DNA from: Amoebophrya sp. A120
Taxonomy: Eukaryota; Protista; Dinoflagellata
NCBI GenBank assembly: GCA_905178155.1
Contig: CAJINV010000021.1
Coordinates: forward strand, 417,050 to 481,049
DNA: 64,000 nucleotides
Direction: 5' to 3'
This document shows positions 4,789 through 58,018 of the stretch, one piece after another; position 1 is the first letter of the stretch; each line of letters begins with the position of its first letter. The translations under genes and the position numbers were made by a program. The notes beneath the pieces are model-generated. The model did no database searches, was not told the DNA's origin, and saw only the letters and a list, made by a program, of their open reading frames with translations.

Positions 4789-5482
4789 AAATTTGGTGCG
4801 GTTGCATTCTTTCGCTTTCATCTGGCACCCGTAGAAGTGCAGCGAGCGCGAGCTGGTGAACCGCCCGCGAGGGCGGCGCGGGGAAACCCGCGAACGCCAC
4901 GAAATCGTGGACAAAATAGAATTCTACGAAAGCCATGCGATAAGGTCAGGACACACAGAACAGAGTTACATAATGCATGGGACGAGTCTGATTTTCATTT
5001 TTTATTTTTTACACGCTGCACCACCTCCACCAGGGTGGAGGAGCAAATACTTCATGACTTGGGAGAATAGACACGAACAAGTACTTTACTACTGTCGCTC
5101 GGAGTAGATGTAGAAGAAGTGACACCTGTAAGTTGTTCTTTGATAGCACCACCGCTCGAGATGAACGACGGAATGCGCAGCGTCAAGCTAGTGTAGTTGT
5201 GGAATGTCGAACTGACAATGTGCGTGCACCGCAACGAGGGGTTAGTGGAGGTTTTGGTACATGACCACACAGACAAGAGGGCGGAGCGGAAGATTAAGTA
5301 TGTTCGTTCAACGCCGCCAGATAGACACTGCACGTCGAGAAGATCAGCAGTGATATGGTGCTACTAGCGAAGATCCAGCAGGTATTTTTTGCTGTGGGTA
5401 CTATAGGAGAGCTAGAACAACTACAACTTCTAGGAGAGGTACTTCTACCAGAGGCCGCGCCGCTCCACCAGAGTCAGAGACC

Positions 5483-11800: not shown

Positions 11801-14800
11801 CCACTGGCACTTGCCAAAGTGGAGTAAACGGTACGAGGGGATGAAAACTGGTGCTACTGGGGGTGGAGAACGAAGCGGCGCCAGCACCTTTTCGGCAAGC
11901 GACTACCAGCTGCCCTACACGCGGGAGGCGGAGCTGGCTTTCGCGGAAACGGGCAAAAAAGACGGCATCCCGATCAAACAGTGTTGCTCTTTCATCGTCC
12001 AGGCCATGACCAGTCCGAACTTCCTCAGTAACGACTTGGAGCTGACCGAAAAGTTTGTCGTTCAGAACTGTGTGGTGTTTGCCAAAAACATGCATGAGCA
12101 TCTGTTCGGCAAAGAACCCACTGCGGCTGAGCAGGCAGCTATTGATGCGGCAACAACTCCCGTGGGGCCGGAGGCTTTGCCGCCTGCAGGTGTAAGAAAT
12201 AACGTCGGCGCCCCGGAGGTTCCGAACGCTGACTGTGAGGTGGGACCCTGGGCGGCGGTCGGGGCGTGCTCCAAGACTTGTGGGATCTACGACAATACCC
12301 AAGTGCGGATCCGGCAAGTGACCTACCCCCAAAGCGGCAACGGGAAAAAGTGTCCCGCGCTGCAAGAGACCGTGCCCTGCACGCTCGAGGCGTACACCGG
12401 GGAGTGCAGCGTAGATTGCGAGGCGACCGACTGGTCGCCTCCTGAGTACGGCTCCTGCAGCGTGGGACCGATAAAGGGTCCCGGGGGTGCGGTTCTGTTC
12501 GCGAAGCGGTGCCGGAAAACCCGCATATGCATTGCAAATGTATCGCACTAAAGTGTAAAGTGTATTACAAAGTGCCTTACTTCGTATGAATAAAATATGT
12601 TTTTTTAGCTTAGGATGGCGATTTGTAATGCGTTGTATCTGCAATTGCTGCGAGCGCGATACTTTTGCAATGCATACCGCACGCGGGAGATCAAAACCCC
12701 ACCGACGGGGCCCGACGCAGCCCCCTGCCCAGGGAACAACGAAGAACTGGAGCAAGCAAAACTCTGCACCATCAACGACGATACCTGGAAAGAGTGCTGC
12801 GAGGATATGGCTTGCTCAGATGTTACAATCTCAAACGTTACAATAGAATCTGGAATTTGTCTTGCATGAACAGCATGAGTACCATACAGAGACTTGGGCT
12901 TTTTGCAATACAAATTTCGTCAGAATCTCATGGGGTTTGGGGCTCCGAAACTTGTCATGCGCGCCCCTTTGGGAGTAGGCCAGATGTTGCGGATTTTGCA
13001 ACACAAGTTCCAAACTCTATTGCAACGTTTGAGATTGTAACACCTGAGCGGGTTATGGAGGACAACGCCGGTGCGGAGTGGACCGAGTGGACGGCATGCA
13101 CCAAGACGTTATCAAATGTAAAAATGTCTGGGTCTGGACGGTTAGAACTTGTCATGCTAAATCTGAATGATGCAAAAATCTGTGTTGCGTGAGTGCCAAA
13201 AGCTGTCCGCTTTTGACCAAGTTGAGAGGGAGTATCTCATGCAGGAAAGGCATGACAGAGACCTCACAAAATCTGTCATGCTGGGTCTCACATTCCAGAC
13301 CTCATGGGTCATGGAAAACCTGCATCACAAATCTTGCATTCTTCCAGACCCAGACATTTTTACATTTGATAGACGTGCGGTGGCGAGGACGAAATGAAAT
13401 CGCGCACGAAGACCGAATACAAATACCTGATCCAGGACCCGGTGCAGTGCGTCAGCGAGGTGACACGGGACACAGCCCGTTGTCACGAGGGGCCGCAGCC
13501 GGACTGCCCACGGGACTGCAAACTGAGCCACTGGACCGAGTGGGGGGAGTGTTCCAGCACCTGCGGAAAAGGCCAACACACGCGGACAAGAACAGTTGTG
13601 CAGCAACCCATCGGGGACGGTGAGCAGTGCCCCGATAGTGCCACTGAAAAAAGCGCCTACGAAGAAACAGGGGAGTGCGAAAACACGATTGAATGCGTCC
13701 CGAAAGTGGACTGTGCACTCGAGGAAAAGTATGTCGCTCCTGTTGCCCAGGAAAATAATAACGGGAACGACAACACCGAAGAAGGCGGGTGGTCCCCCTG
13801 CAGTAAAACCTGCGGGGGCGGCGCGAAGTTCCGCATCAAGTTCGTAGACCAGCTGCCGCAGGGATCGGGGAAGAGCTGCCAGAAATTGTTTGGCAAGGGC
13901 GAAGGCATCACTGATGCCGCCGTGGTGGCCAAAGAAGACATCACTATCAGTTGGGGGTACATCGACGCCGGGGCCAACGAAATAAAGGGAGCACACTACA
14001 CCGATGGAACGCCAGTTGAAATAATAAATGCGGAGCAGGAGCAGAGCCAGAGCAGCGGCAGTGTTAGTACAAGCAAGCTCAAAATGTACATGAAGGAGAC
14101 AGCCGATTGCAATCGGGAGGTGAAATGCCCGGATCCTGTAGATTGCGTGATGAAAAACTGGGAAGCTTGGACGGAATGCTCCAAGAGCTGCGACGGCGGT
14201 ACGCGGACGCGCGCACGGTACGTAAAAACTCCGCCGAAGGAGGGTCGCCCGAAATGCCAAGACGTGGACCTGTACAAAATCGAGAATCTCCAGAAGGGCT
14301 ACGCCAACGGGACGGCGCCGCACTTTGAATGGCTCTCGACGGGCGGGGGCGGGCAAGAACAACACGACGGAAAGCTGCACCAGAAGGAAACCGCGCGCTG
14401 CAACGAGATACACTGCCCCTGCGCGATGGAAGAGTGGGCCGCGGATTGGACGACGTGCAGCGTCACGTGCGGCCCCCACGGGAAACAGACGAGGGAGAGA
14501 AAGGTGAGTACCCTGGGGGGCTACGCGGACCTGACCGGCTGCAAAAGTCTTTTCGGAGACGAGAGCAAAGCGGGTGTGCAACACGATAATGGGGTGTACA
14601 TCATACGCGACGCAGACGGGATTACTCGGCAGTGGGAGGAAAAATCGCCGCTGGAAAATTCGATACAGAAGGAAACGCGCAAGTGCAACAACTTTCCGTG
14701 CGACGACCAGCCAACAGGGGACGCTGCAACTACGGTAGCCCCGCCCGAGGACGGTCCACCGGCTTGCGTCCTAGACGAGCACTGGTGGAAAGCGGACTCC

Positions 14801-15442
14801 TGCGGCTGTCAATGGAGGGGCGTGAGTAGTCCCGCTACGGGCACGTGTTTCAATGATATCCCACGAAGAAAGTGTTGCAGTTACACACTTGATGTTGCAA
14901 TTGCAGCAACACAAATTTTCTCCGCATGGCAGAGAAAACTTGTAATGCAGAGTTCATAAGAGAAAACACGTATGAAACAAGGCTTGAAAGCATTTCGTGC
15001 ATCACAGAGGTTGTCTGTCTTGCGTGTTCTGCAGCACAATGCGTAACACTTTTTTCGTTGCATAAATGGCGAAGACGGCGCAGTGTACGCGGTCTATAGC
15101 AACGCTGCCGCGAATTGTCCGGCCTGCAAAGGCCGACCTGCGTCTGTCAGCACGCCCTACATTTTGTCCGACAAATCCTGCGAAGACGACAAATGCAGGG
15201 TGGGTTCCGCCCGTGCCCCTGCGTTCGCGAGCGGGTGGGTTCCGCCCTTGCCTCCGAAGTCGGGGGAGACGGTGCCCGGTTACCGAACCCTGGTGAACAC
15301 CGATATTAGAGACCTGTTTGCGTCGCAAGAGGCGTATTGGAACTACGTGAACGACATCGCAGCGCAGCAAGCGGTGCTGGAGGCTTCCCAAAAGAAGCAG
15401 CAGTCCAACTTCTTCGGGTTGCCCACATTTGGTCTTAGGTGA
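8883..15442 (+). CDS. Large secreted/surface thrombospondin type-1 (TSP1) repeat protein, 8 TIR introns
   Basis: Hydrophobic N-terminal segment; repeated WxxWxxCSxTCG...RxR motifs. One continuous frame results from removing 8 elements, e.g. WTEWTACTKT|CGG and CRKTR|TREIK. Confidence 0.88.
10042..10370. mobile_element. TIR intron, family A
   Basis: TATTGCGAGGAAGAATCCGCCCTCCCCATA/TATGGGGAGGGGGAATTTTTGCTTTCGATA; duplication CCGCA. Confidence 0.92.
10405..10688. mobile_element. TIR intron, family C
   Basis: TATCCCGTGTAAAAACGTCC/GGACGTTTTTACTCAGGATA; duplication CGGAC/CGGGC; homologous to 57256-57544. Confidence 0.92.
10814..11051. mobile_element. TIR intron, family D
   Basis: TATGGTGTTGTCAAACGTTAC/GTAACGCTTGAACACGCCATA; duplication TCGTG. 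Confidence 0.92.
11082..11302. mobile_element. TIR intron, family B
   Basis: TATGCAAGAAAAAAACTGTG/CACAGTTTTTTTCTTCGATA; duplication CCGAA. Confidence 0.92.
12526..12676. mobile_element. TIR intron, family E-like
   Basis: TATGCATTGCAAATGTATCGC/GCGATACTTTTGCAATGCATA; duplication CCGCA. Confidence 0.92.
12806..13057. mobile_element. TIR intron
   Basis: TATGGCTTGCTCAGATGTTACAATCTCAAACGTT/AACGTTTGAGATTGTAACACCTGAGCGGGTTATG; duplication GAGGA. Confidence 0.9.
13110..13371. mobile_element. TIR intron, family F
   Basis: Perfect TIR TATCAAATGTAAAAATGTCTGGGTCTGGA; duplication GACGT; reverse-complement homolog at 28358-28618. Confidence 0.94.
14857..15064. mobile_element. TIR intron
   Basis: TATCCCACGAAGAAAGTGTT/AACACTTTTTTCGTTGCATA; duplication AATGA/AATGG; removal joins to ORF 15083-15442. 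Confidence 0.87.
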
Positions 15443-21814: not shown

Positions 21815-24800
21815 ATGACGTTCCGCCGGTGGGTCATCTTTCACTTCCTCTTTCGCACAAGCAAATCTTGTCTCCTGCAAGAAGTGTCGCTATCGCAGAA
21901 GCTGTTTCTGCTTACGGCGGGGGCTACCTATGAGGCGAATGCGTTGGATCCGGAGAAGAGTACTAGCCGGTCAGGATCGGGTCCGCCGGGCTCCTTGTCG
22001 GAACAAAGCAACATTTTATTTCCAGGGCAAGAAGATGGCCGCTTTCTTCACGATGATGTTGGAGATAACATCGAGAAAAATTCGAATTACGTCGACATTA
22101 GCCAGGACGCCGACTTTTTCTCTCCCCAGAGCGAAGAAGATGTCGAGCAGGCCGCAGACTTTCATGAACGATCATCCAGCGAGAACCCTCGGAAGATGGG
22201 GCGCGGTGAAGGTCGTACGCCGGCGGTAGCAAGGCCCTCATCTCCGGTAAGTGCGGAAGCTGCACCAGCCGAAGAGATCCCAAATGGTCAGGAAGCGACC
22301 TCTTCATCGTCGTTCGCTGCAGCGGGAACAACCGATGGTGCGGGTGACGACAATATTAAAGCCGTCAATTCACCATCATCTCCTGGAAAGGTGCAAGTTG
22401 AAATTGATGCAGAAGCGAACCTACGAACTGCAAAAGTATCGTAAGTTGTACTCGTAATGTAAATGCACCATTAAAAATGATTTCCTTAGCATGAGAAATG
22501 AAATTTGTATTTGTAAATGCGGATTTGACTTAACAAGAAAATTTTAAATGCACGATTGCAAATGCAATACGAGTACAGTACGATTTTGCACAGGATAGAA
22601 CCAGTACGTCTCGAAGCAAGAAGTGCGGCAGATGGTGCGCGACTTGATGCTTCTTGAGCAGCACGCTGCAGGTAGAAGTAGCACTGACGCCCGGCTGCAG
22701 CGTCTGGAGGAGGAGAATCGGAGGCTGCAGCAGGAAGTGGAGAGGCTTTCCTCGAAAGCGGACTCGTTCCAGGAGGAAACCTGGCGGTCGTTCCAGCGGC
22801 TTCGCTTTGTCGGGGCCCAGGTGTATCACATGCTTTTCTTCAGCCTGTTATGCATTTCAAAAGTATCGCATTCGCACGGCACTGCCGCTAGCAACATAAA
22901 TCGCATGTTCTTGACACATTTCCTCATGAAGCAGAGCCGAGCGCTGGATTCAGGTAGGAAAGCAAATTTTTGCATTGCTGCAATTTTTAGTTTTGACGAG
23001 AGCGATACTTTTGCAGGGGATACCTGTGGATTCTCATCGGCACGTGTGAGAGTGCACAATCGTCCCTCCTCCTCATTTGTCATGCAAGATCCACAATCCA
23101 AATCCAAATGCCGCCTCGATGTCGATGTGGCAGTGTTTGCATGACAGATCCCGGAAGCCAAAGCAGTACTGCAGGACTAGCACTAGGCGCGTGAATTTGT
23201 CATGCGCTTCAGGAGGCTGCAGCTGCACATGTGCATGTGCTGCTGCTGGTGTTTGTACTGCTATGGATGCCATACAAATCAGGGGGAGCAGAAGTTGTGC
23301 ACTCCCATAGCACGGCACGGAGCAACCAGGACATTACCTTCGCGCTGATCGTTCTGGGGTTCCTGTATGGAGTTCTCACACTTTGCGCTGTCAGCTGTTA
23401 CATGATTTGTCATGCAAAGGCGCCATCGCCGTCATGTCATCTTCAACCTCCACACGATGAAGCTGGCTCACGTGGCTGATTATTGAAGCGTGGCAAAAAT
23501 TCGTTTCAAATTGTAATCAATTTATTATAGAAGTACTCTCTGGCAAATTTTGCTAGTTGTACAGGTCTGGCATTCATGAACTCACTGAAGAGTGCGTGAG
23601 GAGCACGGATGTAGCTAATGAGTAATGACAATGTCTGAGAATGCCATACTGTGTGCTGCGTTGTTGGTACCGCCGCACCTTGGTACTTGGCAATATTTGC
23701 TGGCGCTGATCGTCGTCGACGCTACTTCTCGAAAAAGCGGTCTACAACTGAGGATGAGCTCGCTCGTACTACTAGTGGTCGCGCCATAGCTGCAGAAAAT
23801 GCGAGCTCGAGGGCCTCTCGTCTCCCCAGTAGTGGCGAGACAGTTACAACCAGGCGCGCAATGCAGTCGACGAGAATTCTTGCGTCGTCTAACCCTGGAG
23901 AGGACTTGCTGCCTGCTGTTGCCGAAGAAGTTCTTGCGAGTGGGGGCGAGATGGTGAAAGCGGCCGCAGCGGGACCGGAGACCACCGAATTTTCGCGACA
24001 CAACATAAAGAACGATACAAGCGAGGGTGCGGGCGATCCTGATGTTCCGCACGTTGGCGTTGGCCGCGTGGCGCAGGAAGCTGCCGGCGGCGCAGCGGAT
24101 GGCCGCGCAGCGGATGTTCATGTCGCGCCCTCCGAAGAGGAAGAGCCAGACGAGGACACCAAGAAGAACTACCAAGAGAAGATGAGTAAGGTTGAAGAGG
24201 ACGAAGAGGATGACGCGGACCCGGTTCCGTATGATTTTATCCTTCAGGGCACCTTGTCGTGCGTGTGTCAGGACGGCGAGTCCGCGGAGGGACGCTTCTT
24301 TACGGTCTGCGTTGTGTTGTACATGATGAGCTCTCTGCTAGCAGCGCCTCCCTTCGAGGCCTACACATCTTGATGCAAGTTTCGAGACGTGACTGAGCTG
24401 CTGCAGGGCAACCCCGGGCTCCCGCGGCTGCAGAACTGGATTGAGGTAACCGCTCGGGCGTTGTGGCACGTGGTCCCATATGGCGTTCTCAAACGTTACA
24501 TTCTCAACTGTTACATGATTTGTCATGCAAAACTCCAATCAGATTCGACGCGATCAAGCTGTTGCGCATGACAAATTCTGGAAGGCCCAAACAGGCTGAG
24601 AATCTGTGCCAAATCTGTCATGCAAAAGGCGCTATCTTTCCCCTTTCAGTTTTGCCATTCTTGCACCACAAACTCATGTAACAGTTGAGAATGTAACAGT
24701 TGAGAACGCCATATCCCAAACTTCTGCTTTGTGCTCGTGGCGGTCCTCCCCGCGGCCTCCGATCCCCGCGTGCGGGCGAAGATCCGACGTGCGCGACTTT

Positions 24801-32796: not shown

Positions 32797-32896
32797 GGAA
32801 CCACGACGCGCTCAGTCAATGAAGAACACGACGCGCTCAGTCACTTTGCTCCGCAGGAAATGCGAGGAACCACGACGCGCTCAGTCAATGAAGAAC
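32797..32896. repeat. Short local direct repeat downstream of the aminopeptidase stop
   Basis: GGAACCACGACGCGCTCAGTCAATGAAGAAC at 32797 and 32866, with a partial third copy at 32828-32843. Confidence 0.8.
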
Positions 32897-33789: not shown

Positions 33790-36700
33790 ATGAGCACCAT
33801 CGATCCCCGGTACCTTCGTCTCTCCGGCGCGCAGCTGGCCCACCGCCACAGCACAGCCGAAGGGAAGAACGAGCAGATTGTCTATGCTCTCTGGAAGGAC
33901 ATCACGAGCTCCCTCGAACGATCGGAGAGCCACAAAACCGAGGCGGCGGCGCTGATGGCGGCGATTCGGTACCGGGTTCGCGGCTACCCGGAGAAATTAC
34001 CCGCGATTTTGTCGAAGCTGGTGCGGTTTTTTTCCACAAACTTCGAGGACGTGAGCGACGAGCGGTTTGAGATGGCGGCGGATTTGGTGCGGGCGGAGCT
34101 GCCCGACGCCCGGGCGGGGGAAATTGTGTTCTGGGTCTTGCGCGGCATTCTCGTGGACGACGCGACATCGGTTTTGTGTCATATTGTGGCGCTCATGGAG
34201 GAGGAACTGCCGAATTTGCCGATTGTGGATAAGATCCAAAAAGCGCTCGTGTTGGTTCACCTCTACTACAACAGTTCGGAAGTGGAAGAACAGCAGGAAC
34301 TGCAGCAAACGCAGTACATTTCCGCCCCAGTAGGAGAGAAACAATTGCAGGACATGACGTTCCAACAGGGCTACGACTTCGCTGACTACAGCAACACGCT
34401 GAACAGCGGCACAGCAATGCCCTCGAAAGGCATCAAGCGGCCGCGCGCGGAGGGCGAGGCCAAGCCCGATGAACCAGAAGGGGAGGTCCGGCCGCTGAAA
34501 AACCAGGGACGACGAGGCGGACCAGGGTATTACAACGAGTTCGACGCGTTGCGGCGCGATTCTTCCGCGTACTCCAGCATCAACAGCAGCATTTCCCGGT
34601 CCTCTGGCCAACCGAGTCGGCGGAGCGCGCAGTCCGTAGCGAGAGTGGAGCCGACCGAGGAATACGGTGTGGTGAATACGTTTCTGGGAAAAATGTCCAG
34701 CGAAGGCGAGGGGGCGGAACAGTCGCGCATGGAGGCGATGCGCGATAGTGCGGTGGAGCAACAGGCTGGTGGAGTTGAACCCCAAGCGAGTATGCGGGGC
34801 GCCACGGACTCCGCCATTTCGATTTCCTCGGCCGGGAGCAATTCTATCAGCATCCAGGGCAGTGTCCGAAAGTCCAGCCAGATGCAGAGCCAGGCTGGTG
34901 TAGTACCGTCTCGCGGAAGCAGCTCCGCCGTTAACTACAATACGTCAATTAGCTACGGCACCGGCGACTACCCGCGCCGGGAAGAGGACAATCCGACAGT
35001 GGTCATGCAGTCGAGGCAAGACAGCTCGCAAATACCCAGATCGACGCGGGAAAACGAGTCAACCGGGTTTTTCCTCGCGCCAATGACGTCGTCTGCCGGT
35101 GCCTCATCAGGAGGAGGCCGGGCAGCAGGAGCCTCCTCTACTTCTGCATCCAGAACGCACAGCACTTTTAACGAGAGTGTGAAAATACCGTCGAGGTTTG
35201 ACCCGAAGTCCTCGACTTCCTCCAGTTCGACGTTCCGGTCCAGCTCGAGTTCTAACAACAGCAGCATGCGGGACCCGTCCAGCAGCTTCAGCACGGGGTT
35301 TGCCGTACCGTTGGCCACACAAACAATGTCAATGGCAGCTCGGGGCTTCAACAGCAGTACTTCCGGGCGTCCAACAGGACCGTCCAGCGCGTCCAGAGGT
35401 GGGAGCAGTGCTGTCCAGAGGACAAAATCATTTCCGATCGTCGACACCAACTACCGACCAAGAATCCCTTCGGAATCGCCGCGCGACCACGAACCGGTGG
35501 ATTCCAACCCGATGACCGCGGTGCAGATGTCGATCAAGAATATCGAGAAAACGGTCACTAACGTTGTTGCTGCGAAAGCGGGCGAGCAGCAGCGCCCGAG
35601 CGAGATGTTTGACCAGCAGGGCAGTACGCGAGCGCTCATCGCCAACGCGGAGCGAACGGTGGTGAATGCACAGGTCACGGAACCAATAACGAGCAGTGAT
35701 GTGGCCGCGCCACCACTTTCGGCGGCGCTTGCGGTGCCGCGGGCGAATCCCAGCACGGCGTCAAGTGTAGCTGATCCTGGGTCCGCTCGCGGTTCGAACA
35801 ATCCTTCGAGGACGGAGGAAAATTCGCTCTTGAGAATGCTGAATCAACAGCAGCAGGCAAGCAAACAGTCGTCCGCGCAGCGGATCGCGATGGAACGTTA
35901 CGGGCGTGAGGGGCCCAGTCTGGCCGCCCCGGCGGACGCGCCGGTGTATCCTGCGAGTGCCCAGAACAAGTTGCGACCTCTGACGCTGCGCGACATGCTG
36001 GATCCGACGGACGCCGGAAACTTAACCGCGGCGGAAAAAAGCCGCATTCGCGCATACAACCCCTCCCGGGACGCGATGGGGGACGTGATGCAACGCCCCC
36101 CACCACAAACGCCCGAGGACATTAGTGCGAAGAAGCGGGTGCCGCTGCTCGAGGTGTTAGCCAAGGTGTGTGACGCGGAGTGGAAGCGGACGAACCCCGC
36201 GGCGGAGGAGTCGTACCTCCCGCACGACTCCGCGGTGAAAGATTTGTCCAACCTGCGGAAACAGATCCTGCGCGCCATCACCTCCGGATCCTGGGAGAAC
36301 TACGGCATTGTGAATGCGAAATTCGAATCCATTATGCACACCGACGCGATCGGCGCGTACAAGGCGACGCAGAGCCAGCCGGTGGGGCAGAAACTGGCGA
36401 TGAAGTACGGGGAGACGCCGCAGACCCTGGAAATGATGGCGGTCCAGTGCGCGACCAACCCGTTTGTGCTGCAAAACGCTTCGCAGTACCGGGTCAACCG
36501 CGGGGAGTACTTGCAGGATATGGGCCGGGTATTATCTGAGATTGAGAACGAAGGGCGGGGCAGTCTGTTTCTCGCGATGGCGGGTGAGGAAGGGAACGAA
36601 ACCCTGGTCCAGCAAGCTTTAAAGCCTTACGAAATGTTGCAACAAAACATGGCCACCGCACTCGGACACAACCCCTCAGCACCGGGTACTACGGGCAATG

Positions 36701-39700
36701 CGACTCCGAGAACTAGGGGCAATAATTCGACGGAGCAAGTGCAGGCTTCGGAATATAATTTCAACAATATGGATCAAAACATCAACAACTCAAGCCGCAG
36801 TTTGACAAATTCCCTGTCCCCAAGGGAGAAGGAGATCAACGTGTTCCTGATGTCCACGAACAAACACCACGCTGGCGCCGACGGGACAGACCCAGCAACC
36901 CTGTTGAGCACCCCACCAAACAGCCGGGAACTGAAAGACCCGAGCTTTGTGTTGCTATCCTGTGCAAAAGTATCGTACTCGTAGTAATCGCAATCATGCA
37001 TTACAAATCTTTATCCCATGGCAAAACAGCATGACAAATTCCATTTGTCATGCTGAGCTAATTTGTATTGCAATTACTACTAGTACGATACTTTTGCAGT
37101 TCATAGTTGCAAATGGACGACAACGGGGTCACGAACTTCTTTGACCAAGTGATCGTGGGTATGAACGGACAAAATACAACTTGACCCCAGAAAGAGCATA
37201 GAGCGCCACGAGAATGAAACTAGCGACCTACGAGAATGAGGAAGCAAATGGGGCCCCACCCGCTTACAACTTTTCCCGCTCCGGACGGGGTAGAGGCTGC
37301 ACTTTTCATAGGGCTTGTGCCCGTTTTTTCGCGCAAAGCTACTTGTTTTGCGCGCGGTTTTTCTCCGCTCGAGCGGTCGGGTGGAGAAAAACTGCATTAC
37401 AAAATTGGAAAACCGGCCGGATGCAGATGCAGCTTTTCTCCCCGCAGGAGAAAAGCCGCATCACAAATTCGCAAACTCCGCTTCCTGCGGTTGGAGAAAG
37501 ACCGCGCCTCCGGTTCTCCGCATTACAAATGCGGAAAGGTGACCTTTCCGCATTACAAGTGCGGAAAGGTGCCCATAGCCATTGCATTTGTAATGCGGAG
37601 AGCCCGACCTTTCAAAGGTCGGGCTCTCCGCATTACAAATGCAATGGGCGGAAAGGTCGGGCTCTCCGCGTTACAAATGCGGAGTGCGGGGCTTCCCAGA
37701 GCTCGGGGTTCGGGTTGTGGGTAAAATGGGGAAAGGGGAAAGCCCGGAGCCTCGGGTTCTCCGCAACCCGGGCTCTTCTCCGCATTACAAATCCCCCCAC
37801 CCCTTTCGCCACAAGCGGCTGCTGCAGCCGCTGCACACCGTCGGGCGCAACCTTTTGCGCGATGCTATCCCCAAGCAGCAATATTCGCACTCCCGATAGC
37901 ATCGAGCGTGAGGCTATGCTGCATGGTATCGCTGCGTGCGAATTTCCCTCGCAGCCATACCATGCTGCATTAGGTTACGCACGACCTGTGGCTGTCTTTC
38001 TCTGCCCCCCTTGGGCGTTGTGCAGCTTCTTTTTACCCTCAAACACGACCGGACCCCGGGAAAAGTTGTGGTTTAGGGAGGAAGCACAACTTTTCCGCGG
38101 ACCACCCCAAGCCGGCCCCGCGGTGCCGCTTCTCCCGCATGAAGCCACGGGGTTGCGCGGGCCCTCGTGCAGTCAATGGTCCAAATTCCCGCGGCGCTCG
38201 GTGTTTCGCAAGCATACACCTCCGCAGAGAGACACGGCCGATTTTTGGCGTTTGCCGTTTTTGCGCCGGGCCCCGAGGGTCCGGTCGCTAGCAATGAGGG
38301 GCCAGCGCGCGCCTTCGTTGTGTAGCCGGCGCGCTTTTTGTGGCAGGCTGCGCGCCTTTTCGTTTTGTTTTTTTCGTTTCTGTTCCTGTTGGGGTCCAAA
38401 GACAGGGCGCGGAACTAGGGGCGCCGGTGCGCTGGCGGTGTTTCTGGGGCAGCGCCAGCAGCGATGCTTCAAGCGGAGGGGGGGGGGCATGCAAAAAGGG
38501 GTCGCGCTCTGCAAAAAGCAGCTCTGCAAAAAGGGGTCACGAACTTCTTTGACCAAGTGATCGTGGGCCCGCACGATCCCTAAATCGGAAACATCAATCC
38601 GCATGCCTATAGGGGAAAACCCTAAACCCTTTGCGACCGAACGCCCGCATGGAGTACTCCCACGAGCTAGCTGGCGGCCCCGGCTGCGCGACCGGGTCCG
38701 GAGGGGAGCGTGGGCAAGAGAGGCGTTGCTCCAGTGAAGTGCAACGCCCATGACCTTTTTTTCTTCGTTGCCCGGGTGCGCGCAGCCAGCGCCCTTCCCG
38801 GCGGCGATCACCTCCGACCGCCACGACCCTCTGACCCCCGGTCACGTGCCGTCCGGCTGGCCGGACGGACGTGACCCGCCCGGTCACGTCTAGGCTCCTT
38901 GTTATCTTGTAATAATTTTTAGGGCAGGGGACCTAAGGCCCACCCACCTGGGTGGGTCGAAGGTCCCCTGAGGACCTAAGCGGACATTTTGTGACCCTCT
39001 TCTAAGCTACTCAAAAAGTCGCGGCGCGCGCGGCGCTTTTATTTTGAGGGCCAGCGCACTGGCGTGCAGATTTGGCCCGGGGATGTCGTGCGAAAAAAAC
39101 GCGGGAAACCAGGGCCAACACAAAGAAGGCCAGCAACCGCGCCCGCAAATCGGGGGGGAAGACTGACAGACACCCGGCGGGCCCGGCAACGCATTATACG
39201 GGGCGCGCCTCGCCTGTTTAGTTTCTTTCTTTGTTTGTTAGTACGGGGTCACGAACTTCTTTGACCAAGTGATCGTGGGCCCGCACGAAGTCATCACCGA
39301 GGGCGTGAATTTCAACGTGAAACAAACGGAAAACTTGCCGTTTCGCCAGACCGTCGACTACAACCCTCGAAATTTCTCGGTTGCGTATCAAGGCGCGGGC
39401 GCGCAAACAGCGACGAAAATTATAGGTGCAAACAATAGTCCGCGGCAGCCAACGCGCGCGAACAACAATAACATACCCGAGGCAATACCCGAACAGCAGG
39501 AGTACGAGTCGTCAAACGAGAATAACGACAAAAAGAATGAGGAATACATCCTTCCTCCCAAGAACGACAATAATCTACCGCCAGCAGGGAAGAAGAAAAC
39601 GGTTTCCGCAAGTGTACAGAGCTACACGCAAAATCAGCGACAGGACCTGCTCTCGAAAATACCAGGCGGCACGACGAAAAACGCGCAGGAGGGGTACAGT

Positions 39701-39742
39701 GCCAATCAGCGCGACAACCTGCTTTCCAAAATGCCGTTTTGA
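33790..39742 (+). CDS. Large uncharacterised Ser-rich protein; one TIR intron and a 2.1-kb insert near the 3' end
   Basis: 1064-aa ORF continues after removing 36956-37110 (FVL|QMDDNGVTNFFDQVIVG) and resumes in ORF 39269-39742 (VIVGPHEVITEG...). Confidence 0.75.
36956..37105. mobile_element. TIR intron, family E
   Basis: TATCCTGTGCAAAAGTATCGTACT/AGTACGATACTTTTGCAGTTCATA; duplication GTTGC. Confidence 0.93.
37160..39243. mobile_element. 2.08-kb GC-rich insert flanked by a 36-bp exon duplication, with a third internal 44-bp copy
   Basis: CGGGGTCACGAACTTCTTTGACCAAGTGATCGTGGG at 37124-37159 and 39244-39279; internal copy 38533-38576; ends TATGAACGGACAAA/TTTGTTTGTTAGTA. Confidence 0.8.
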
Positions 39743-40617
39743 TGCGGAAGGGCCTTTTGGGTGCAGTGCTTCTGCGCCCTTGTTTTAATTATTCATTTGT
39801 TTTTTTCTTTTTTTATTTCGTAAGTGAGTCTATGATCATGCGCATCAAGCGCTGCAGTCCCTAAGTTGTAGACGTTTACTCACAGACATTCGACTTGAGT
39901 ATATTAGAGATTGAGATACTACTTGTACTACAACTTCTAAGTACAATATCACACCGTGCTGCAACTGCAAGAAAATCGGCTGGGGACGACACTTGATTCA
40001 ACTACAGTCCCATCAGATCTGGGAGTTTTCTGCCAATCGGAAAAGCTTGAGGACACAGAGACCCAGTGCCGCATGTTGCGAGTCTATTTCGGATATCAAT
40101 ATTCCTTCATCTTTTGCATTCAGGTTCAGACCGAAGATATTTGACAACATTATGAACTTGAAAACAACTACAGGTTGGTCGTCACCACCTGTGGTTTTTT
40201 TTGCCGCGCAGGCTTTTCCTTTTTGCTCTTGCGCGTTTTTGCTGTTCACATTCGAAGGTGGCACAAGCACACGGTTTGAGAGCAGTCCATGCTGATGTGC
40301 TGCGCGCGTCTCATTGGTGCAGCCGCACCAATCTTGTTGTGCCCCGCCCATGGTTAACTACTCACAGAGAGATTTATTTTATGACCGTACGTATCCCGGC
40401 GCGTAAGTACATACAATATCACGATCATCATGACCGTGACTGCGTAAATTGGTTGCCAGCACGCACAAGAACATTCCTACCGTTCAGAACGACGGCCTTG
40501 TGAGTGTGTGGAGTAACGTAAGTACATCAAGGTCAACATCAAGTACCAAAACGCAGAGGAGTGTTTTTACGTACCTGATCGATCCTTCAATGTTGTTGAT
40601 CAACTAGCGCCAGAATC

Positions 40618-45172: not shown

Positions 45173-48084
45173 ATGACTCTGCACGATCTGGACGGGGATG
45201 CGATCGATGTTGAAGAGGCCAGCACCTCGAAAGGAACTTCTTTCTGCCAAACTGGAACTTGCGGACGCAGGAGAAAAAAGCCTACCCAACCTGATTTAAC
45301 CACCAACGACTACTCCTACGTCCTGTTTCCCGAAGACACTACAGTCGCACGACCACCAGTACAGGTACATGCAGCAATGTTGTTGGCCGGGGACGAGAAC
45401 TATCGTATGGGAAACCCCCCGACAGCTGCCGGAATACACGAGGAACGTCGTTGGTACCACTTCCGGTGGCGATTTTTGTGTGAAGACACGGAAGCGGACG
45501 CGACCTGCTGTGAAGACGCTTGGTGATACATAAAGTACTTTCTCGGGGTCTGGTTCGGCTCCTTGAGTGCACTCGCTATCGGCTCCTATCTGGTCTTCCG
45601 GTGGGTGCACGCTGAATTTCCATCCTCCGGTGGAGACGACGTCGCAAACGATCTACAACAACTTTTGTCGACGACAATTTCCAATACCAATGCAAGCCCG
45701 GTAGGAACCACGACGGTCCTTGCTGCTTCGTCGTTTATCTCTGGCGCTACTCCTGTCGCTGCAACGACGGCCCCAGGAAATGTGGTGGCGGGGGCCTCGT
45801 TGAGCGGTTTTCTACCGATTAGAACAAATGGGTAAAAAGCTGCTAAACGGTGAAATCTGTATGTCGATTACCAATATAAGCGCCTCGGCTCACATAAAGC
45901 TTAATATGACAGCAAACTATGCTCTTGCCGTAATGTTGAGTTTCAACATCCTACCAATCTCACAATTCTTGTGATTTGCGATTTCACGCCGGTCGTCCAG
46001 TTTTGCCGGCTGCTAGCGCAATGATTTTTGACCTAAAAGAAAAGCTGCATGTTTCTTGCTGTAATTCGAAGATAAAGCTGGCGGTCGTGACGAAAGCGAT
46101 TTCTTCTTCCTGCTGCAATTCTATCAGTACAACTCTTGATAAACCAGATTTATGTTTCGTGTAAGAAAGAAAGTAAATCAGGATGTTGATCCGTATCTGT
46201 TGTAAGATCTAGAGGTCAACCGAAAAAATCAAAAATCTATGGCGTTGCTCCTTGAAAAAACTACAATCCTTGAATTTGATTTTTTGAAGTTTTTCCTTCG
46301 GGCATCAAATTGGGGCCATCCTTACTTTGGGCCCGTTTGTGTTCCGATGCCTTTTTGTATGTGGTCATGTCCCGACGTTGATTCCTCTACGCAACGCGGG
46401 GTGTTTGGGCGAATCACTCACCAGTGAGAACAATCGATCACGAGACGAGACCACTCTGTGAGAAACAGTTTCGCAATTAAAGAAAGATGAAGAAACGCCA
46501 CGGTCACGGACTCCAGTGTGCGTCGGCACTCTTACCTCCGTGATGCTTTCTCGGTTTGCCGCACCACTGGAATTTGGCTTTCAGCCTGGGCCCGTTTCTA
46601 TCGTTTGCGTTTGCTCTACTAGAGGATTAGAGGGGCGGGGCTCCTCCAGAGTCCAAGTTATTGGAGGGCTTGGCTTTGGGAATCACGTCAACACGCCGCG
46701 GCACCGACCTCCTCGGGCCCGGTTTTTCTTCCCTATCTACACTTTCGGAGGCGCAATTATGTCGGTATTGCGGAAAGGCCTAGTTTGGTCGGGTTTCATT
46801 GGCATGGTGTGCTCTTCGTGGACCCCTTGTGGGGACGTTTTTCTCGTGGTATTACACGCGATGCCCCACGCCGGGGGTAGATAGGGGCGCGGCTGCTTAC
46901 CCGCTAGCCCGGACCTGCGGTCTGGTTCGCCAGCTTGTTGTCGGGCATGTTTTGTTTTTTTGGCTGGGGATTTTGGATTGGCGCCAGGTGCGTGCTCCCC
47001 TTCGCTTTTGGTGGCTTTTAGAAGCAATATCGGTTGCTCCCGCAGGGACGGCGGGGTTCCCGCCTTAGCTAGCTTGTCAGCGCCGCTGCCCGGTACAACT
47101 GCTACTCCTATGAGGAGGGGTCTTTGCGACATTCCGAATAGGAGCGATGCCTCCACCCCGCTTGCGCGCGGGTCTTGTTTGTTAGTTTCTAGCCCGGGCG
47201 AGGCGTGGTCAGTTCACGCGCAGTTGCGGTCCTCCTTGGGTGTGGGAGGTTGCTGTGCCGTAGCTACTTGCTTTCTCGGCTGTGGCCGCGCGCGCGTTCC
47301 GTGCTAGCCATGTGGCGGGAAGTCGTTTATTTCACCAGGCCACGGGGGAGAGCGGGCCTTTCATTTCGTGCGGGTTGTTGGAGATTGCTTAAAGGACGCG
47401 CGCTGGTAGACTGGCTTCCTTCTGTAAGAGGGCTTGCCTTTTTCGGGTACTTGCATACACTGCTCCTGCTCGAGTTGCAGATGCTCGCGCTTCTAGCGTT
47501 GGTCAGCGAGGTAGGGGCTACGTGCGCTCGGCGCGGCGAGTCAGGGGCCCGGCGATAACGAGGGGGAGGCGCTTTTGGGAGCGAGGTTGTGCTGCCTGGG
47601 CATACAACTGTGCGACTTGAATAGATTCAGTCGGTTGCCTGTCTTCCCTTGGGGGCAAGTGGGGCTGGGGCTGGCGTTGTTCCCCCATTCAACCACCGGA
47701 GGTGGGGTTCTGGGGGGTCTTGCCCTGGGGGCCAGGTGGTGGCGGAGTGGGCCGTTCCCCGCTACGGAAGCTAGGTCCGGCCTGCTGCGCCCAGCCCCTA
47801 CCTTCAGGCTCGCTCCAACGGGCCGCTTGGGCGGTGTCGGCTCTGTCTGGATAACACTCGGAAGGAACGCAGCGAAAATTAAAGAAAGATGAAGAAACGC
47901 CACGGTCACGGACTCCAGTGTGCGTGAAGATCGGTCGATCGCGCCAGGGGTGCCTACTATTGAAGATGTAGATGCTTTCCAAGTAAATAAAGTGTGGCAA
48001 ATGTTGCGGGATAAGCACGCTTCACTATCCACCCTAGGACACGACTACGATCCACTTCGGTTTGTCATCCGAAATCGGTTTTGA
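45173..48084 (+). pseudogene. Possible membrane-protein gene or pseudogene with three in-frame TGA codons and a 1.35-kb insert
   Basis: ORFs 45173-45526 and 45563-45835 are one frame split by TGA. The frame from 46239 reads through TGA 46425 and 46488 and, across the insert, into DSSVREDRSIAPGVPTIEDV...RNRF. Linking the two halves is inferred. Confidence 0.45.
46524..47876. mobile_element. 1353-bp GC-rich insert flanked by a perfect 49-bp direct repeat
   Basis: AATTAAAGAAAGATGAAGAAACGCCACGGTCACGGACTCCAGTGTGCGT at 46475-46523 and 47877-47925. Confidence 0.78.
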
Positions 48085-48726: not shown

Positions 48727-49037
48727 GGAGAAAACAAATCATCCAAAATTTAAATGTAATATGGCATTCAGAAACGGAAACCTTTTCAACACCCATACGA
48801 AAACGGCGAATGTTCTGTTGTAGTGGGAGAGTTGTACAGGTATGATCCTCGGCGAAATGCAATAGAATACATCTGCGCAGGACCTGCGCAGATGTATTCT
48901 ATTGCATTTCGCCGAGGATCATACCTGTACAACTCTCCCACTACAACAGAACATTCGCCGTTTTCGTATGGGTGTTGAAAAGGTTTCCGTTTCTGAATGC
49001 CATATTACATTTAAATTTTGGATGATTTGTTTTCTCC
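48727..49037. repeat. Perfect palindrome, 155-bp arms, 1-nt spacer (A48882)
   Basis: 48727-48881 is the exact reverse complement of 48883-49037. Confidence 0.93.
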
Positions 49038-52615: not shown

Positions 52616-55600
52616 ATGTCCCAGTTTCTGAAGCGGTTTTGCCAGGGCGCCCGGAAGGCGCTGCAACAGGCGAGCTTGAGCACAGAACAGACCGGGCCTG
52701 CTGCAGCACCTTCAAAGCAACCGATCATCTTCGTGATGGGCAACACTTCGTGCGATTTGGATAGTGTCTGTTGCGCTCTCGCCCTGGCCTATCTTTTCGA
52801 GTTGGACAAAACGTCGAAAACAGCAAACATTTCCTACATTCCGCTCCTGAACTACCGCCGGCAAGATTTCCCGAAGCTGCTGCAACAGGCCTACTGGCTG
52901 GAAAAGTACTTCCAAATTTCCGTCGACGATCTCTGTTTCTACGAAGACGCCGTGGCTACCATGTCTGCTAGTATTCCTGCGAAGGACGACGAGAAGGCTA
53001 CCGCTCCTGGTGCAGCCGCGGGACCACCATCACCTGCGTGTTCCTTCCTCCTCGTCGACCACAACGAGGTCGACCCCACACAGAGGGAAACTCTGCGGGG
53101 GAAGGTCGTTGGCTGCGTCGACCACCACGAGGTCAACGCCGGAAATAAAGTGGATCAGTTCCTACGAGGAACTTCTTCTTCCCCAGACGACCCCGCGTTT
53201 GCTTCCTTTCCGCAAATTCTGGACATCCGCATTCCCTCCGTCTGCGGTCCGGAGGCCATCGTTGGCAGCTGCTCTAGCTTGATTTTGGAACGAACAGTGA
53301 AAGTGTACGAAAGTAGGATAGCGACGCCGGCGACGGGTACTACTGGTTTACAACAAACCGAGTTTTTTTCCGAGCTTTTCTCGCTTCTCTCCGGCGCGAT
53401 TTTGTGCGACACGCGAAATTTCGCGGACGCGACCAAGGGCAAATGTGCCCAAGAGTTTTCCGAGCTTTATTTTTCGCTTCTCTCCGGAGCCATTTTGTGC
53501 GACACGCGAAATTTCGCGGACGCGACCAAGGGCGTCGGGGAGTGGCTTCGGGGGGCAACAGCGCAAGAGCTCCGCAAAAGCCCTCCAGCAAGGCATGCCA
53601 CGACCCCAGCTGGATGCTGTCTGACACGCGGCGAGTGGCGCCGCCGCAGCCGTCTGGCCTTAGAGGCCCGGAGCCCGCTCGAAGGCGGGGCTCTGCTCCC
53701 TTTCTAGTAGACCCGGATCAGTTGGGTTCCTGCCTTGGCACGCGGGCAGGGCCTGGGTCGCAGCGGGATGGGAAGACACCCCGTCAGAGGCATTGCCAAA
53801 TTAGCAGACGCGAAGCCGGCCATAAGACTGCCGTCACCCGCGCCGCGGACAGAGGAGTGCGTCGGAACACGGCGCATAAGCCTTGCTGCCCCACTGGCGG
53901 CGGAGGAGCTAGGATGGGGATCCACATGGCCAGCCCCGGCATGCCTGTTGCTCTGAGGCAATTCGACCTGCATTGCTTTGGGTTTGTGCTGCTTCGGGAC
54001 CTCCCCGGGGGACCTCCCCGAGGGACCTCCTAAAACCGACCAAAAGTGGAATGGTTCGGAAAATCTTCGCCCGATGGTATGAGACCTCCTCGTAGAGGTC
54101 CCTTGAGGACCTCCCTTGAGGACCTCCGGGAACGCCTCGAAAGGCCAGACTTCGGCTCGCACCTTTCCGCAGGACAAGGTCAGCACCCCCCACTCCTGAA
54201 GCAAAGTGAACGGCCAACCCCGGAGCCCCGGCCGGAAGGCGGGCGCACGGGTTTCTGCCAACACTGTGGCGGACTTGTAGATCCGAAGCTGCGCATGGTG
54301 GAAACGCGACGCAGCCTGCCGCCCGAAAATAAAAGTTGCGAAATCTGAGCGAAGGGCGCTCAAGCTTCGCCCAAAAACGTCATCCCGCTGGCCAGCGCCT
54401 GTTCCTTCATTGCAACAATGGCCGCGCGCCATGAGCTTCATTAAGAAAGCCAACATGCTTTCCGCGATAGGCGAGCTTCAGAGGCCGTGGCAAATTGGTG
54501 GACAAGACAAGACGGGCGTCTAGCTAGTCTCCGATGTGCTAGCTTTCCTCGCCCGCTTCACCGTCATGCCTCCGGAGCTGCGCAAATTGCCCCAAAAGCT
54601 ATGCGACTCCGTGCGGCGGCCTTTTTACCCGGAGCAGTGCGGCACAACTGTGCGACCGGTCGAGGGCTCACAGTCGGCGCCCGACTCGAGCATGAACCAG
54701 CTTGAATGCTCAAGATCTGTGCACTGTGTGCTGATTCTTTGCTCGCCGATTCTGATGGGCCTTTGCGCGCGCGCGTTCCGATACTTAAAGAAAAATTTGA
54801 AAATATTTCTTGATTCAACAGTTGATCGCGTTATAGCGGGTACTACTGGTTTACAACAAACCGAGTTGTTTTCCGAGCTTTTTTCGCTTCTTTCCGGCGC
54901 GATTACTAAGTGGAAATTTCCCGGAAACCGGAAAATTGAAAAAAATCCCTCTCTTTTGAAGACGACGCTGCGAGTACGACGTCGAGACGCGGTGGCTGCT
55001 CGGCGGGTTGCTGCGCGGATGTTCCTGCTTCTGCTCAAAGAAACCAGTCTAATTGATCCACTCAAAAATCCTCACTCACAGGTACTCACTATACGAAAAT
55101 ATCAAAGCACTCTACAGGTCGAAATCCTTACCCTGTCACGCCGATCCGCCGCCAGCAGGAGATAAACACACACACACGCCACAACTACTTCATTCGCAAA
55201 TCATAGTAGACTCTCCTCATCATAAATCTCTACGCATCAGAAATTCAAATAAAAAACTCAGATCATACAGGCTACCGCTACTCTACATGTGTGGCCCTAC
55301 AGAACCGAGGTGCTCAGGTTCGGAGTGGTCGTAGTCGAGCAAGGTGCCGAAGAGCAGGTGGATCACCAAGAGGACGTGTTGCACCGGGTGGCGCAACATG
55401 TCCTCAAGCTGGTGAGACAATACGGCGCCAGCAGTTCCTGGGATCTCGGTCCAGACGTGGCGGTGGTTCTGGTTGATTTTTTAAGCTGTAAACCTGATGG
55501 GAGAATTTCAATTTGATTTTTGATGTCGGAATGCGGAAGAACCTGTCTATTTGAGAACTTTTTGAAATGATCTGGATTTATGTGATGTTGTGGCGTGTGT

Positions 55601-58018
55601 GTGTGTGGGGATGGTCGATCTTTCCGTCGGCAACCGCGGGTACCTGGTAAGACATTGATGTTTCTGTTTATATCATGATGAGAATGTGACGCGAGCCTGG
55701 ACGCTGATCTTCCCGGACCGGATAGCGAGACGTAGGCGGAGGACTTTTAGCACGTTTGGAGGCGGAGGACTTGGAGGACACCAACAGGGCTGCTTCCTCC
55801 ACGGGACTTCTGCGAAAGGGAGGGAATTTTTTCAATTTTCCGGTTTCCGGGAAATTTCCGCTTAGTAGCGATTTTGTGCGACACGCGAAATTTCGCGGAC
55901 GCGACCAAGGGCGCAAAGTGGTCTGTGAAGGGGGATAAGGATATCCAAAAAAAAATGTTAACATTAACATTTTCACTAGTCAAATTTTTGTCATGTTTTT
56001 GTGTGATTTTTTTTTGTATTTTTTCATGCCAAGTAATGAACTACTGTAGCTACTCGAAATAGAACCCATGGGCAGCTAGCTACAGCTAGACTTCTATGTT
56101 ATTGTTGAGAGCTAGCTAGGCTAAGGTGTGCCGGCGCGGCGGACGTGAAGGAAAACAAGGCGGCCGAGGTGGCGGCCAGAGGTGCGGGGAGACTGGGAAA
56201 CAAGGCGGCCGAGTTGGCGGCTGGAATGAGCCTGCTGAAGGCCTTGGGGCAGTGTGCTCGTTTTTCCTCCGTGCTATCATGCACCATCATAATCGTACTG
56301 CCTTCATCGCAGCCCAGTCTTCAGCTGCTCTTCTTGACTCTAGGGCAGACCGGGGCCAGAGGTGGCCCAGCTTTTGCCTTTCGCCGTTGACCCCAGCGAC
56401 AGAGAAAAAAGGCAGTTTTTTTGAGCTTTGGGCCAAAAATTGGCGCTCAAGCAAAATCGCAAATTCCCGTGCGAAAATGCAGATTTTCAGGCAAATGTTA
56501 ACATTTCGGGCTACGTCCAGATTCCCGCGCAGAAATGCAAGATTTTGGGCAAGTGTTAACATTGGTCTGCAAATTTGCTCAAAAAATGCTCAAAAGTTGC
56601 CATCTTTTTTGCGCAAATGTTAACATCCGGCTCCGGAACGTCCCCGAATGTTAACATTCCCAAAAATGAGCGCTTCCCTGCATTACAAATTGAACATTTT
56701 GAATTTATAAAAGGTGGCAACCCGATCTCCATGGTCGCGACCCGTTGGTGGGCCGACCACATCATCAACCAGACGAAGGCCCGGAACCAGCTGGATTGCT
56801 TTCGAGCATTAGTTGCAAACGAGCAGCGCCACTACCTACGCGCGCACGAAGGCCCACGCACGTCCTCGATGTAGCAGGACGGATCCCGAGACCTTAGCCT
56901 AGTTAGATCAAAACATAAGCTACAGCATTTAGCTTGTTGTCCGTGGGTTCATATGCATAGTATCGCGCATTCAGCGCAATTCCAATGCAAAAAATGATTT
57001 TTTTTTGTCAAAAAACGCATTGAAATTTTGACTAGTGAAAATGTTAATGTTAACATTTTTTTGTTGAATAAAGGAGACTTACGAGACGGCGAAGCAGCTC
57101 TTCGGAGCAGGAACGTCCGCCACAACCAGCACTAGCCTGCTTCCATCCGACGAGGCCGCCTTGTGCCAGGATCTTTTTGACATCAAATTCGACGTGGAGC
57201 GGAATTTGAACCTCGGTGTGTCGGCTTTGCTGGGCGGGGACTACAAGCAGTTTTCTACCCCGTGTAAAAACGTCCCCACCTTCCCAGAGTCAAATTCTTA
57301 TGGACTTTGCGAACACAAACCTAGAAGTTTTGGGAGTCACGCATGATAACTTGCAGTTCGTAGCGTAGTTCAGGTTAACAAGGTCAAGGACAGCCGCGTC
57401 ACAAATCCATCCGCTCGCCTCCCTGTTGATCACATTCACAGCATTACAAATTATGCCAAAACTCGTCTAGAGGACACGCCTCTCTTGTTGGGGATGCGCA
57501 ATCCCCATGACGACTTTGGGCTGGGAACGTTTTTACTCAGGATATTTTCCTATCGCAGTGACACCCTCTCCGTCGGATACGCGACCTTCCCGATCCAGCT
57601 GGTTTCCGTTTTGCAAAAGTTCGATTTAGAAAAAACACTACTGCCTGAAATGAAGGATTTCTGCGAATCAAGAAAAGTGTCCCTGCTCGTGATCCTCAGT
57701 TCGGACCGAAACATGTTGAAACACTTCGGCGTAGGCGTTTTCTGCAACGAGGAAACAGCGGGAAGCGAGGCAAGAAACCTGGCGCTCTCGGCCTTCAACG
57801 CGATCGTCACGTCTTCCGCGACGGATGCGTCTGGGAGTTTGAAAGAGGAGATGGGACTTGTGCCCATCGAGCCGACGGGGGCTAGCGCAACGTCAATATT
57901 TCGGGTGTACGAGCAGCGGAGGGCGGAAAAGTCGCGGAAACAAGTCGAGCCCTTGATTCGCCAGCTGCTGAATTCCATATCGAGTAGTCCTGGGATGACA
58001 ACCATTGACGGCAATTGA
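52616..58018 (+). CDS. DHH-family exopolyphosphatase (PPX1/Prune-like), interrupted by a 1.5-kb duplicated-exon insert and 3 TIR introns
   Basis: MGNTSCDLDS, LVDHN, CVDHH, GSCSSLI, GAILCDT; after splicing DYKQFSY and SRKQV (DHHA2 domain). Confidence 0.88.
53334..54903. repeat. Triplicated exon segment enclosing a 1.3-kb GC-rich insert
   Basis: Copy A 53334-53440, copy B 53456-53534, copy C 54837-54903 continuing at 55873; unrelated sequence at 53535-54836. Confidence 0.85.
54904..55867. mobile_element. Long (964 bp), young TIR element in an exon
   Basis: Near-perfect 45-bp TIR TACTAAGTGGAAATTTCCCGGAAACCGGAAAATTGAAAAAA; duplication GCGAT; empty site visible in exon copies A and B. Confidence 0.94.
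55942..57070. mobile_element. Long (1129 bp) TIR element in an exon
   Basis: TATCCAAAAAAAAATGTTAACATTAACATTTTCACTAGTCAAA and its inverse; patchy symmetry to about 185 bp (CTAGGCTAAGGT 56116/ACCTTAGCCTAG 56891); duplication AAGGA. Confidence 0.92.
57256..57544. mobile_element. TIR intron, family C
   Basis: TACCCCGTGTAAAAACGTCCC/GGGAACGTTTTTACTCAGGATA; duplication TTTTC. Confidence 0.93.

Follow-up and report, generated by a model that had tools for sequence, protein, structure and literature searches.

A 2.1-kb variant introner with an internal copy of its own target site in a gene of Amoebophrya sp. A120

A protein-coding gene of the dinoflagellate Amoebophrya sp. A120 is interrupted by a 2.1-kb insert (37160-39243), which lies between two exact copies of a 36-nt exon segment, contains a third copy in its interior, and is likely removed from the pre-mRNA whole and exactly, as one non-canonical intron. 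The insert is a variant of the A120 introners and not a plain member, since it behaves as A120 introners do, except that the short direct repeat of that group is missing. The middle target copy is very probably a scar of the insertion process when all scar models are taken together; among them, we give about an even chance to one insertion event in which the polymerase filling the gap jumped from the element to the target as template and then returned to the element. Coordinates refer to the window, i.e., the whole 64,000-nt stretch of DNA analyzed, and, unless indicated otherwise, to its forward strand.

Anatomy of the insert and its removal from RNA

A 35-nt core is present in three copies (37125-37159, 38533-38567, and 39245-39279), all of which are 100% identical. 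The left and right copies have 37 nt in common (37123-37159 and 39243-39279), and assigning the final A to the GTA end of the element leaves a duplication of 36 nt; the left copy (T1) is therefore given as 37124-37159, or 37 nt with position 37123. The middle copy (T2, 38533-38576) has 44 nt in common with the right copy, comprising the 35-nt duplication and the next 9 nt of downstream exon, and the right copy together with these 9 exon bases (T3, 39244-39288) forms an imperfect palindrome. The three exact repeats, including the downstream exon bases in T2, had been described in an initial annotation of this DNA and are borne out here; no match to the core was found in any of 100 shuffles with up to three mismatches allowed.

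The target copies delimit two parts of the insert. Part A (37160-38532; 1373 bp, non-coding) starts with TAT, represents the left portion of a repeated introner-type element, and has a ragged inner end composed of short local repeats (38489-38532). Part B (38577-39243; 667 bp between T2 and T3) comprises the right ~430 bp of another element, M, broken at its left side (38577-39002), and a repeated tail, B2 (39003-39243), which contains a pyrimidine-rich stretch with TTAG and ends in GTA. All parts have diverged copies in the contigs, and no copy of the whole from A to B2 was seen. A 452-codon frame (37202-38560) and a 222-codon reverse frame of the insert were scanned and dropped as candidate genes, as neither showed a Pfam match, including any to a nuclease, recombinase, transposase, or reverse transcriptase. 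No Rfam family reached its gathering score, the weak matches being plain hairpins, and no viral contig matched the insert.

The first exon of the host gene (33790-36955) encodes most of the annotated 1225-aa protein P0121, residues 1-1055 of which map at 100%; P0121 belongs to no Pfam family, and no relatives were found among proteins of 595-1894 residues. The exon is followed by an ordinary 150-bp introner (36956-37105) with TAT...ATA ends and a 5-bp direct repeat (GTTGC), a short exon (37106-37159) whose end is the left target copy, the insert itself, and the last exon (39280-39742), which is in frame once the insert is removed exactly. The annotated sequence of P0121 spans both the small introner and the 2.1-kb insert uninterrupted and keeps one target copy. 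An aminopeptidase frame of the window has 100% identity to a protein labelled Amoebophrya sp. A120. Elsewhere in the window, a local triplication of 31 and 17 nt occurs in an aminopeptidase gene region (32797-32896), two tandem genes encoding glycosyltransferase-29 (sialyltransferase-like) proteins accompany a gene encoding a thrombospondin-repeat protein (2666-7078 and 11283-14959), and a perfect 155-bp inverted repeat has a 1-nt center (48727-49037).

The insert is a real feature of the DNA. Five of 11 sequencing runs were compared (X1, X3, X4, X6, and X9, leaving out X2, X5, X7, X8, X10, and X11), of which X1 may represent the sample from which the window was assembled. The junction between T2 and part B is crossed by an exact X1 contig (38547-38719), which has just 30 letters to the left of the junction and a depth of 29.9, compared with 25.8 and 26.4 in the flanks, and the junction between part B and T3 is crossed by an exact X3 contig (38976-39272) covering 30 nt of T3. 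No contig bridged the junction between part A and T2 (38532/38533) in either of two runs (X1 and X4, among the 15 of 39 contigs listed), and no exact contig across 37159/37160 was present among the 24 of 6693 pieces listed. Since the target exceeds the 31-letter word of the assembler, contigs passing through it are graph joins and are not read-proven.

Runs X3, X4, and X6 were treated as RNA on account of the spliced small introner and the empty bins at 40176-40500 in X3; the DNA and RNA-like runs originate from different samples. The small introner is absent from the RNA-like contigs, as shown by the X3 joint 36950-37106 and by X6 record 18, a 721-nt contig of depth 5, which runs from 36567 over the spliced introner into T3 and on to 39562, joining 36955 to 39243. 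Contigs of X3 and X4 pass unbroken through the target at a depth of 166-172 (graph joins). Across the RNA-like runs, exon contigs have a depth of 95-172 versus 6-17 for exact contigs of parts A and B; in X3, the A and B pieces have a depth of 6-16 and the exons 95-166, with 0 at 40176-40500 beyond the gene. The raw RNA run X9 contributed two reads on the window, both less than 90% alike.

Exact removal is likely from P0121 (the A120 annotation rests on transcript alignments; Farhat et al., 2021, PMC7789003) and from the RNA-like contigs of X3, X4, and X6 with the exact junction (graph joins). The initial annotation had proposed that a TTAG at the right end and a GT in the left target copy would allow canonical, in-frame removal. 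Such sites do exist: the TTAG places its AG at 39240-39241, with in-frame GT donors the product would be longer by 6, 27, or 33 nt, and with a further GT-AG pair by 9 nt. However, none of the corresponding products (+6, +9, +27, or +33 nt) is present in P0121 or in the X3, X4, and X6 contigs compared, and the exact junction is what both P0121 and the main contigs contain. An unspliced transcript would reach a stop 8 codons into part A, and removal of part A alone would leave a stop codon four codons into part B.

Outer ends, inner ends, and the nested element

The TAT start and the GTA stop of the insert abut the target copies exactly. Introner-like TAT...GTA outer ends with G-U-rich pairing, as noted in the initial annotation, are confirmed: the left end (37160-37173; TAT, 8 nt, AAAA) pairs on the sense strand with the right end (39230-39243) at 13 of 14 positions, through 10 Watson-Crick and three G-U pairs. 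The energy of this pairing is -9.4 kcal/mol on the sense versus -3.7 kcal/mol on the antisense strand, and the inner ends, which lack pairing, give -3.1 and -3.2 kcal/mol. Among the 63,986 14-mers of the window, the right end is the sole 13/14 partner of the left end, and 18 14-mers pair that well with the right end. When matched with the ends of 10 other introners, the left end reaches no more than 11 with their right ends and the right end no more than 10 with their left ends; the 10 true introner end pairs score 10-14 of 14, and 7 of 90 non-cognate pairs reach at least 13/14. The outer stem forms with a probability of ~0.14 when the full insert is folded, and with flanks about 1 or 0 pairs are expected at 37 or 20 °C. 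The summed contig depth at the two outer ends differs tenfold (about 730 versus 64-150), which is not what one homogeneous family would give, although depth is no copy number. Another copy of part A begins at 37160 with 205 nt of different flank. Similarity between A and B2 is not significant in either orientation, the score being reached by 31 and 124 of 500 shuffles, and the idea that the right part of A and B2 are arms of one inverted repeat was rejected (31/500).

The window (990-63277) harbors at least 19 introners with TAY...RTA ends, which are flanked by exact 5-bp repeats and show no bias toward GT-AG; when 5-bp repeats flanking paired ends were scanned for regardless of end sequence, 16 of 22 matches had TAY...RTA ends. 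The right end of the insert reads TAC, 8 nt, AAA, an end type present in 3 of the 19 introners. The motif GCAT(T/C)ACAAA occurs 23 times in the window, six times in the left 640 bp of part A and 17 times in introner intervals, as defined by 25 intervals with boundaries partly set by hand; confined to introner-type elements, it may serve as a signal for a transposase or for splicing. At 23366, 1113 bp upstream of the introner 24479-24713, there is a third left end of introner type, which suggests a composite or nested element (23366-24713).

The inner part of the insert can be compared with an intact relative of its right half. A scan of metagenome contigs revealed one locus (L001), from a relative with common introner families, which contains the intact 1148-bp element M (L001 2976-4123), a non-coding element flanked by a 3-bp repeat, with imperfect terminal inverted repeats of ~260 bp and GAAG...CTTC ends, its end type thus differing from that of the TA introners. 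Window positions 38575-39006 match the right part of M (L001 3700-4127) at 92.6%. Upstream of the break, intact M has its own sequence and no target copy, and three X1 contigs and one X4 contig match from 38578 with the upstream sequence of M itself. Part B is thus a broken M followed by the 241-bp tail. The telomere-like CCCTAAA motif near 38578 and 38620 is part of M. A 6135-nt X4 contig holding a 56-nt match to the start of part B (38581-38636) could be a longer transcript related to M.

At the inner junction of part B, a 2-nt microhomology overlaps the target. Part A shows, at 38498, 35 nt before its inner end, the single 8-of-9 match to the first bases of the target found in either part, and the short local repeats come after it; another copy of A diverges beyond 38488, without running on into a target and part B. 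Both inner ends resemble breaks at which microhomology is present.

Origin of the middle target copy

Two further inserts with long duplications are present in the window. At locus D (53334-55912), in an exopolyphosphatase-like gene, a 107-bp duplication surrounds a 1.3-kb insert, D1, which has a TA-like end at its right side alone and a ragged left side. Inside, a 15-nt filler and a 79-nt, error-bearing partial re-copy of the target give the order target-filler-target-insert-target, the same layout as at the main insert, and a 964-bp introner was later acquired within the right copy. Of the 107 sites, 3 differ between the left and the right copy. The corresponding protein, P0122, uses the right copy as exon, with a GT at 53337 and an AG at 54820-54821, adding six residues. 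At locus C (46475-47925), a GC-rich 1353-bp insert (46524-47876) lies between exact 49-bp direct repeats, has neither TA-type ends nor an internal target copy, and no clear gene extends across its empty site. A, C, and D1 are of similar size (1373, 1353, and 1302 bp), 12 comparisons among A, B, C, and D1 gave no significant similarity, so that descent from one source was discarded, and inspection by eye yielded no target motif common to the three loci above chance. Target duplications in the window measure 36, 44-46, 49, and 107 bp. An extra target copy in two of three long-duplication loci within 64 kb would exceed what independent insertions lead one to expect.

The initial annotation had offered two explanations for the internal copy, namely two stacked insertions, each producing a long duplication, or a stored target copy guiding splicing, repair, or homing; the former is still a live option and the latter is not supported, while we favor template switching as a third. 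In that process, one introner-type donor would have supplied both outer ends, and its two strand joins to the target would have been offset by 36 bp. Gap synthesis may then have come off the donor where hairpins are frequent, used 44 nt of the exposed target as template, and resumed on the donor at a later point, within the nested M, presumably in this order, so that T2 would be left as a 44-nt scar replacing the lost middle of the element; the polymerase could have been a repair enzyme or a reverse transcriptase. This reading draws on the paired outer ends, the repeated parts, the break in M, the inner microhomology, and the layout of locus D; against it count the lack of significant similarity between A and B2, the tenfold difference in depth at the outer ends, the non-cognate end pairs that also reach 13/14, the low probability of the outer stem in the folded insert, the unbridged junction 38532/38533, the conflict of exact removal with the A120 rule on cut positions, and the fact that no intact A-to-B2 donor was seen. 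Its main rival, which yields an identical map, consists of two successive half-insertions, part B arriving first with a 44-46-bp duplication and part A then entering the left copy with a 35-bp duplication, so that T2 would be common to both duplications. Here, the left side of B would have been broken and repaired and the right side of A broken, and the pairing of the outer ends would reflect a general motif and the survival of spliceable outcomes. We consider this account possible, but the less probable of these two. The geometry fits without remainder, D1 offers a precedent with a TA-like end on the right only and a ragged left, the sizes of A, C, and D1 are alike, the depths at the two outer ends differ, and part B alone would have had in-frame GT-AG exits comparable to the six residues added at locus D. 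Two insertions at most 2 nt from one position would, however, be required, the outer ends would pair better with each other than with the ends of 10 other introners for no reason, and the extra copy at locus D is set off by 15 nt of patchwork filler and not by a second element. One-ended integration with large duplications exists as a mechanism.

It is improbable, in our view, that a long-duplication insertion, produced by non-LTR retrotransposon machinery or by a transposase whose cuts are several helical turns apart, was followed by an internal deletion patched with 44 nt from the right target 700 bp away. Attempted excision of M could explain the break inside it, long duplications are a product of non-LTR elements (PMC9977147), the 49-bp repeat of locus C comes without TA ends, and the IS481EU target site duplications of about 4, 15, and 25 bp (PMC10045372) form a series that 36 and 45-46 bp would extend, albeit post hoc; but the patch begins within 1-2 nt of the first base of the duplication, for which random later repair provides no reason, and the three target copies are 100% identical. 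Decidedly improbable is a cDNA junction that did not arise by splicing, i.e., from insert-free cells or from reverse transcriptase jumping between the 36-nt repeats, or a misassembled copy. Direct repeats around structured RNA are known to give false introns (PMC8240250; PMC2923612), DNA and RNA-like data come from different samples, and junction 38532/38533 is unbridged; on the other side, the T2/B junction has flank-like depth in X1, the exact junction dominates in the RNA-like runs by the exon and insert contig depths given above, and the unspliced form stops early in part A. The chance that the element stores its own empty target as a guide appears slight indeed. T2 is exactly the sequence of the restored junction, locus D also has an internal copy, and palindromic T2 could cross-pair with an outer copy as a relay (-22.4 kcal/mol, with T3 and the ends of part B). 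Yet none of four other copies of the sequence after T2 (three X1 contigs and L001) carries its own target there, these copies of M having M sequence instead, contrary to what a stored local target would predict, and no joint from the end of A to the start of B through another target was found in 39 contigs (32 from X1 and seven from X4; 15 of the 39 listed). The frames tested gave no protein family, and Rfam gave no family at gathering score. Removal of A alone leaves the stop in part B, the relay pairs have a probability of ~0 in the folded transcript, the copy at locus D is partial and contains errors, and a same-strand copy is unable to base-pair with the exons.

Splicing geometry and relation to known elements

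In A120, a distance of 1-5 nt is reported between inverted repeats and splice sites (Farhat et al., 2021, PMC7789003, Fig. S23 legend). For exact removal of the insert, the two cut offsets from the paired ends sum to 36, so this 1-5 nt rule cannot hold for both cuts, and at least one cut must lie 18 nt or more from the paired ends. None of the 38 possible registers of exact removal is a GT-AG pair. Under the template-switch reading, the paired ends would bring T1 and T3 together, and a cut in the same register of each would restore the exon; T2 would not be required. The palindromic target may close the gap between exact removal and cuts beside the stem, as the 3' half of T1 can pair with the 5' half of T3, giving a stem of -21.6 versus -9.4 kcal/mol (-36.5 kcal/mol for the small introner 36956-37105). 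The terminal stem could thereby extend into the exon and leave an effective direct repeat of 8-16 nt, which would correspond to normal introner geometry, with T2 able to serve as a relay. The target is an imperfect palindrome to a degree seen in 0.3-0.6% of coding windows (z = -3.0); the cross-pairing of the T1 and T3 halves alone is equaled by 28% of coding 36-mers, and the folded transcript favors self-hairpins over target cross-pairing. A palindromic target as a general rule was rejected, since the targets of C (6-32%) and D (12-27%) are not significant. It seems doubtful that A120 has an undescribed, common mode of introner insertion with long duplications (35-107 bp) in which inserts at palindromic targets are spliced exactly.

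Guide-bearing elements include TnpB/Fanzor with omega-RNA and IS110 with bridge RNA, in which target-matching sequence adjoins element sequence, as in the insert; unlike them, the insert shows no effector in the frames scanned, and its copy is unique to this insertion and located at a break and not at a conserved position. In R2 and L1, microhomology and filler derived from the target mark one ragged junction, a pattern that the insert resembles. Long, variable duplications, as found in the window, are also a trait of non-LTR retrotransposons (126 bp for R9 and more than 50 bp for Dualen; PMC9977147); unlike those elements, the insert has no reverse transcriptase frame and no clear 3' tail, and both its outer ends are of inverted-repeat type. 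Among DDE transposons with short inverted repeats, IS3EU/GingerRoot have TA..TA ends, as does the insert, and IS481EU/IS1202 have TNT..AYA ends, which are unmatched on its right side (PMC10045372). The insert has no transposase in the two frames scanned, and its 36-bp duplication exceeds the range given for these families in the available part of that source (6 bp for IS3EU and about 4, 15, and 25 bp, in helical-turn steps, for IS481EU), where no internal target copy is mentioned for either. Classification as a Replitron was rejected, as neither the short direct terminal repeats nor the HUH frame of that group (described in a preprint) were seen.

Closest to the insert are the introners of A120 itself, for which direct repeats of 3-5 nt have been described and 3-8 nt surveyed, an 8-20-nt inverted repeat joins the intron ends, and the end motif consists of TAT, about 7 variable nt, and at least three A (Farhat et al., 2021, PMC7789003). 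In a later survey, family 38 is given as "5-bp TSD, TA/TA termini", and the 58 A120 rows of supplement 8 have duplications of 2-11 bp (Gozashti et al., 2025, PMC12130899). The insert shares with these introners short paired ends starting with TAT (here a 14-nt inverted repeat with the end motif), non-coding content, repeated parts, a position inside a coding exon, removal from mRNA, and absence from the annotated protein. Unlike them, it has a 36-bp repeat, a third, internal target copy, and a broken nested element, and its two cuts cannot both adjoin the stem. The freely accessible literature yielded no account, for Amoebophrya, of introners with long duplications or of internal target copies.

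Non-canonical splicing in Amoebophrya without a detected U1 snRNA and the mover of introners are open questions (Farhat et al., 2021, PMC7789003), and the insert provides a test case for this unexplained splicing, although it is one locus and known processes account for part of it. Ordinary introners hide their cut sites in a 5-nt repeat beside the stem, whereas the intron ends of the insert could separate cutting beside the stem from a repeat register and from a stem extended into the exon. If the palindrome model is true, RNA stem geometry alone would set the splice sites in this U1-less organism, and these sites would lie in or near the target loop (37138-37145/39258-39265). Locus D is the contrast case, with one TA-like end, GT-AG splicing, and six extra residues. 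Finally, the presence of three inserts with long duplications in 64 kb points to a class missed by surveys of 3-8-nt repeats, and the junction scars of such inserts would tell whether introners move through DNA or RNA.
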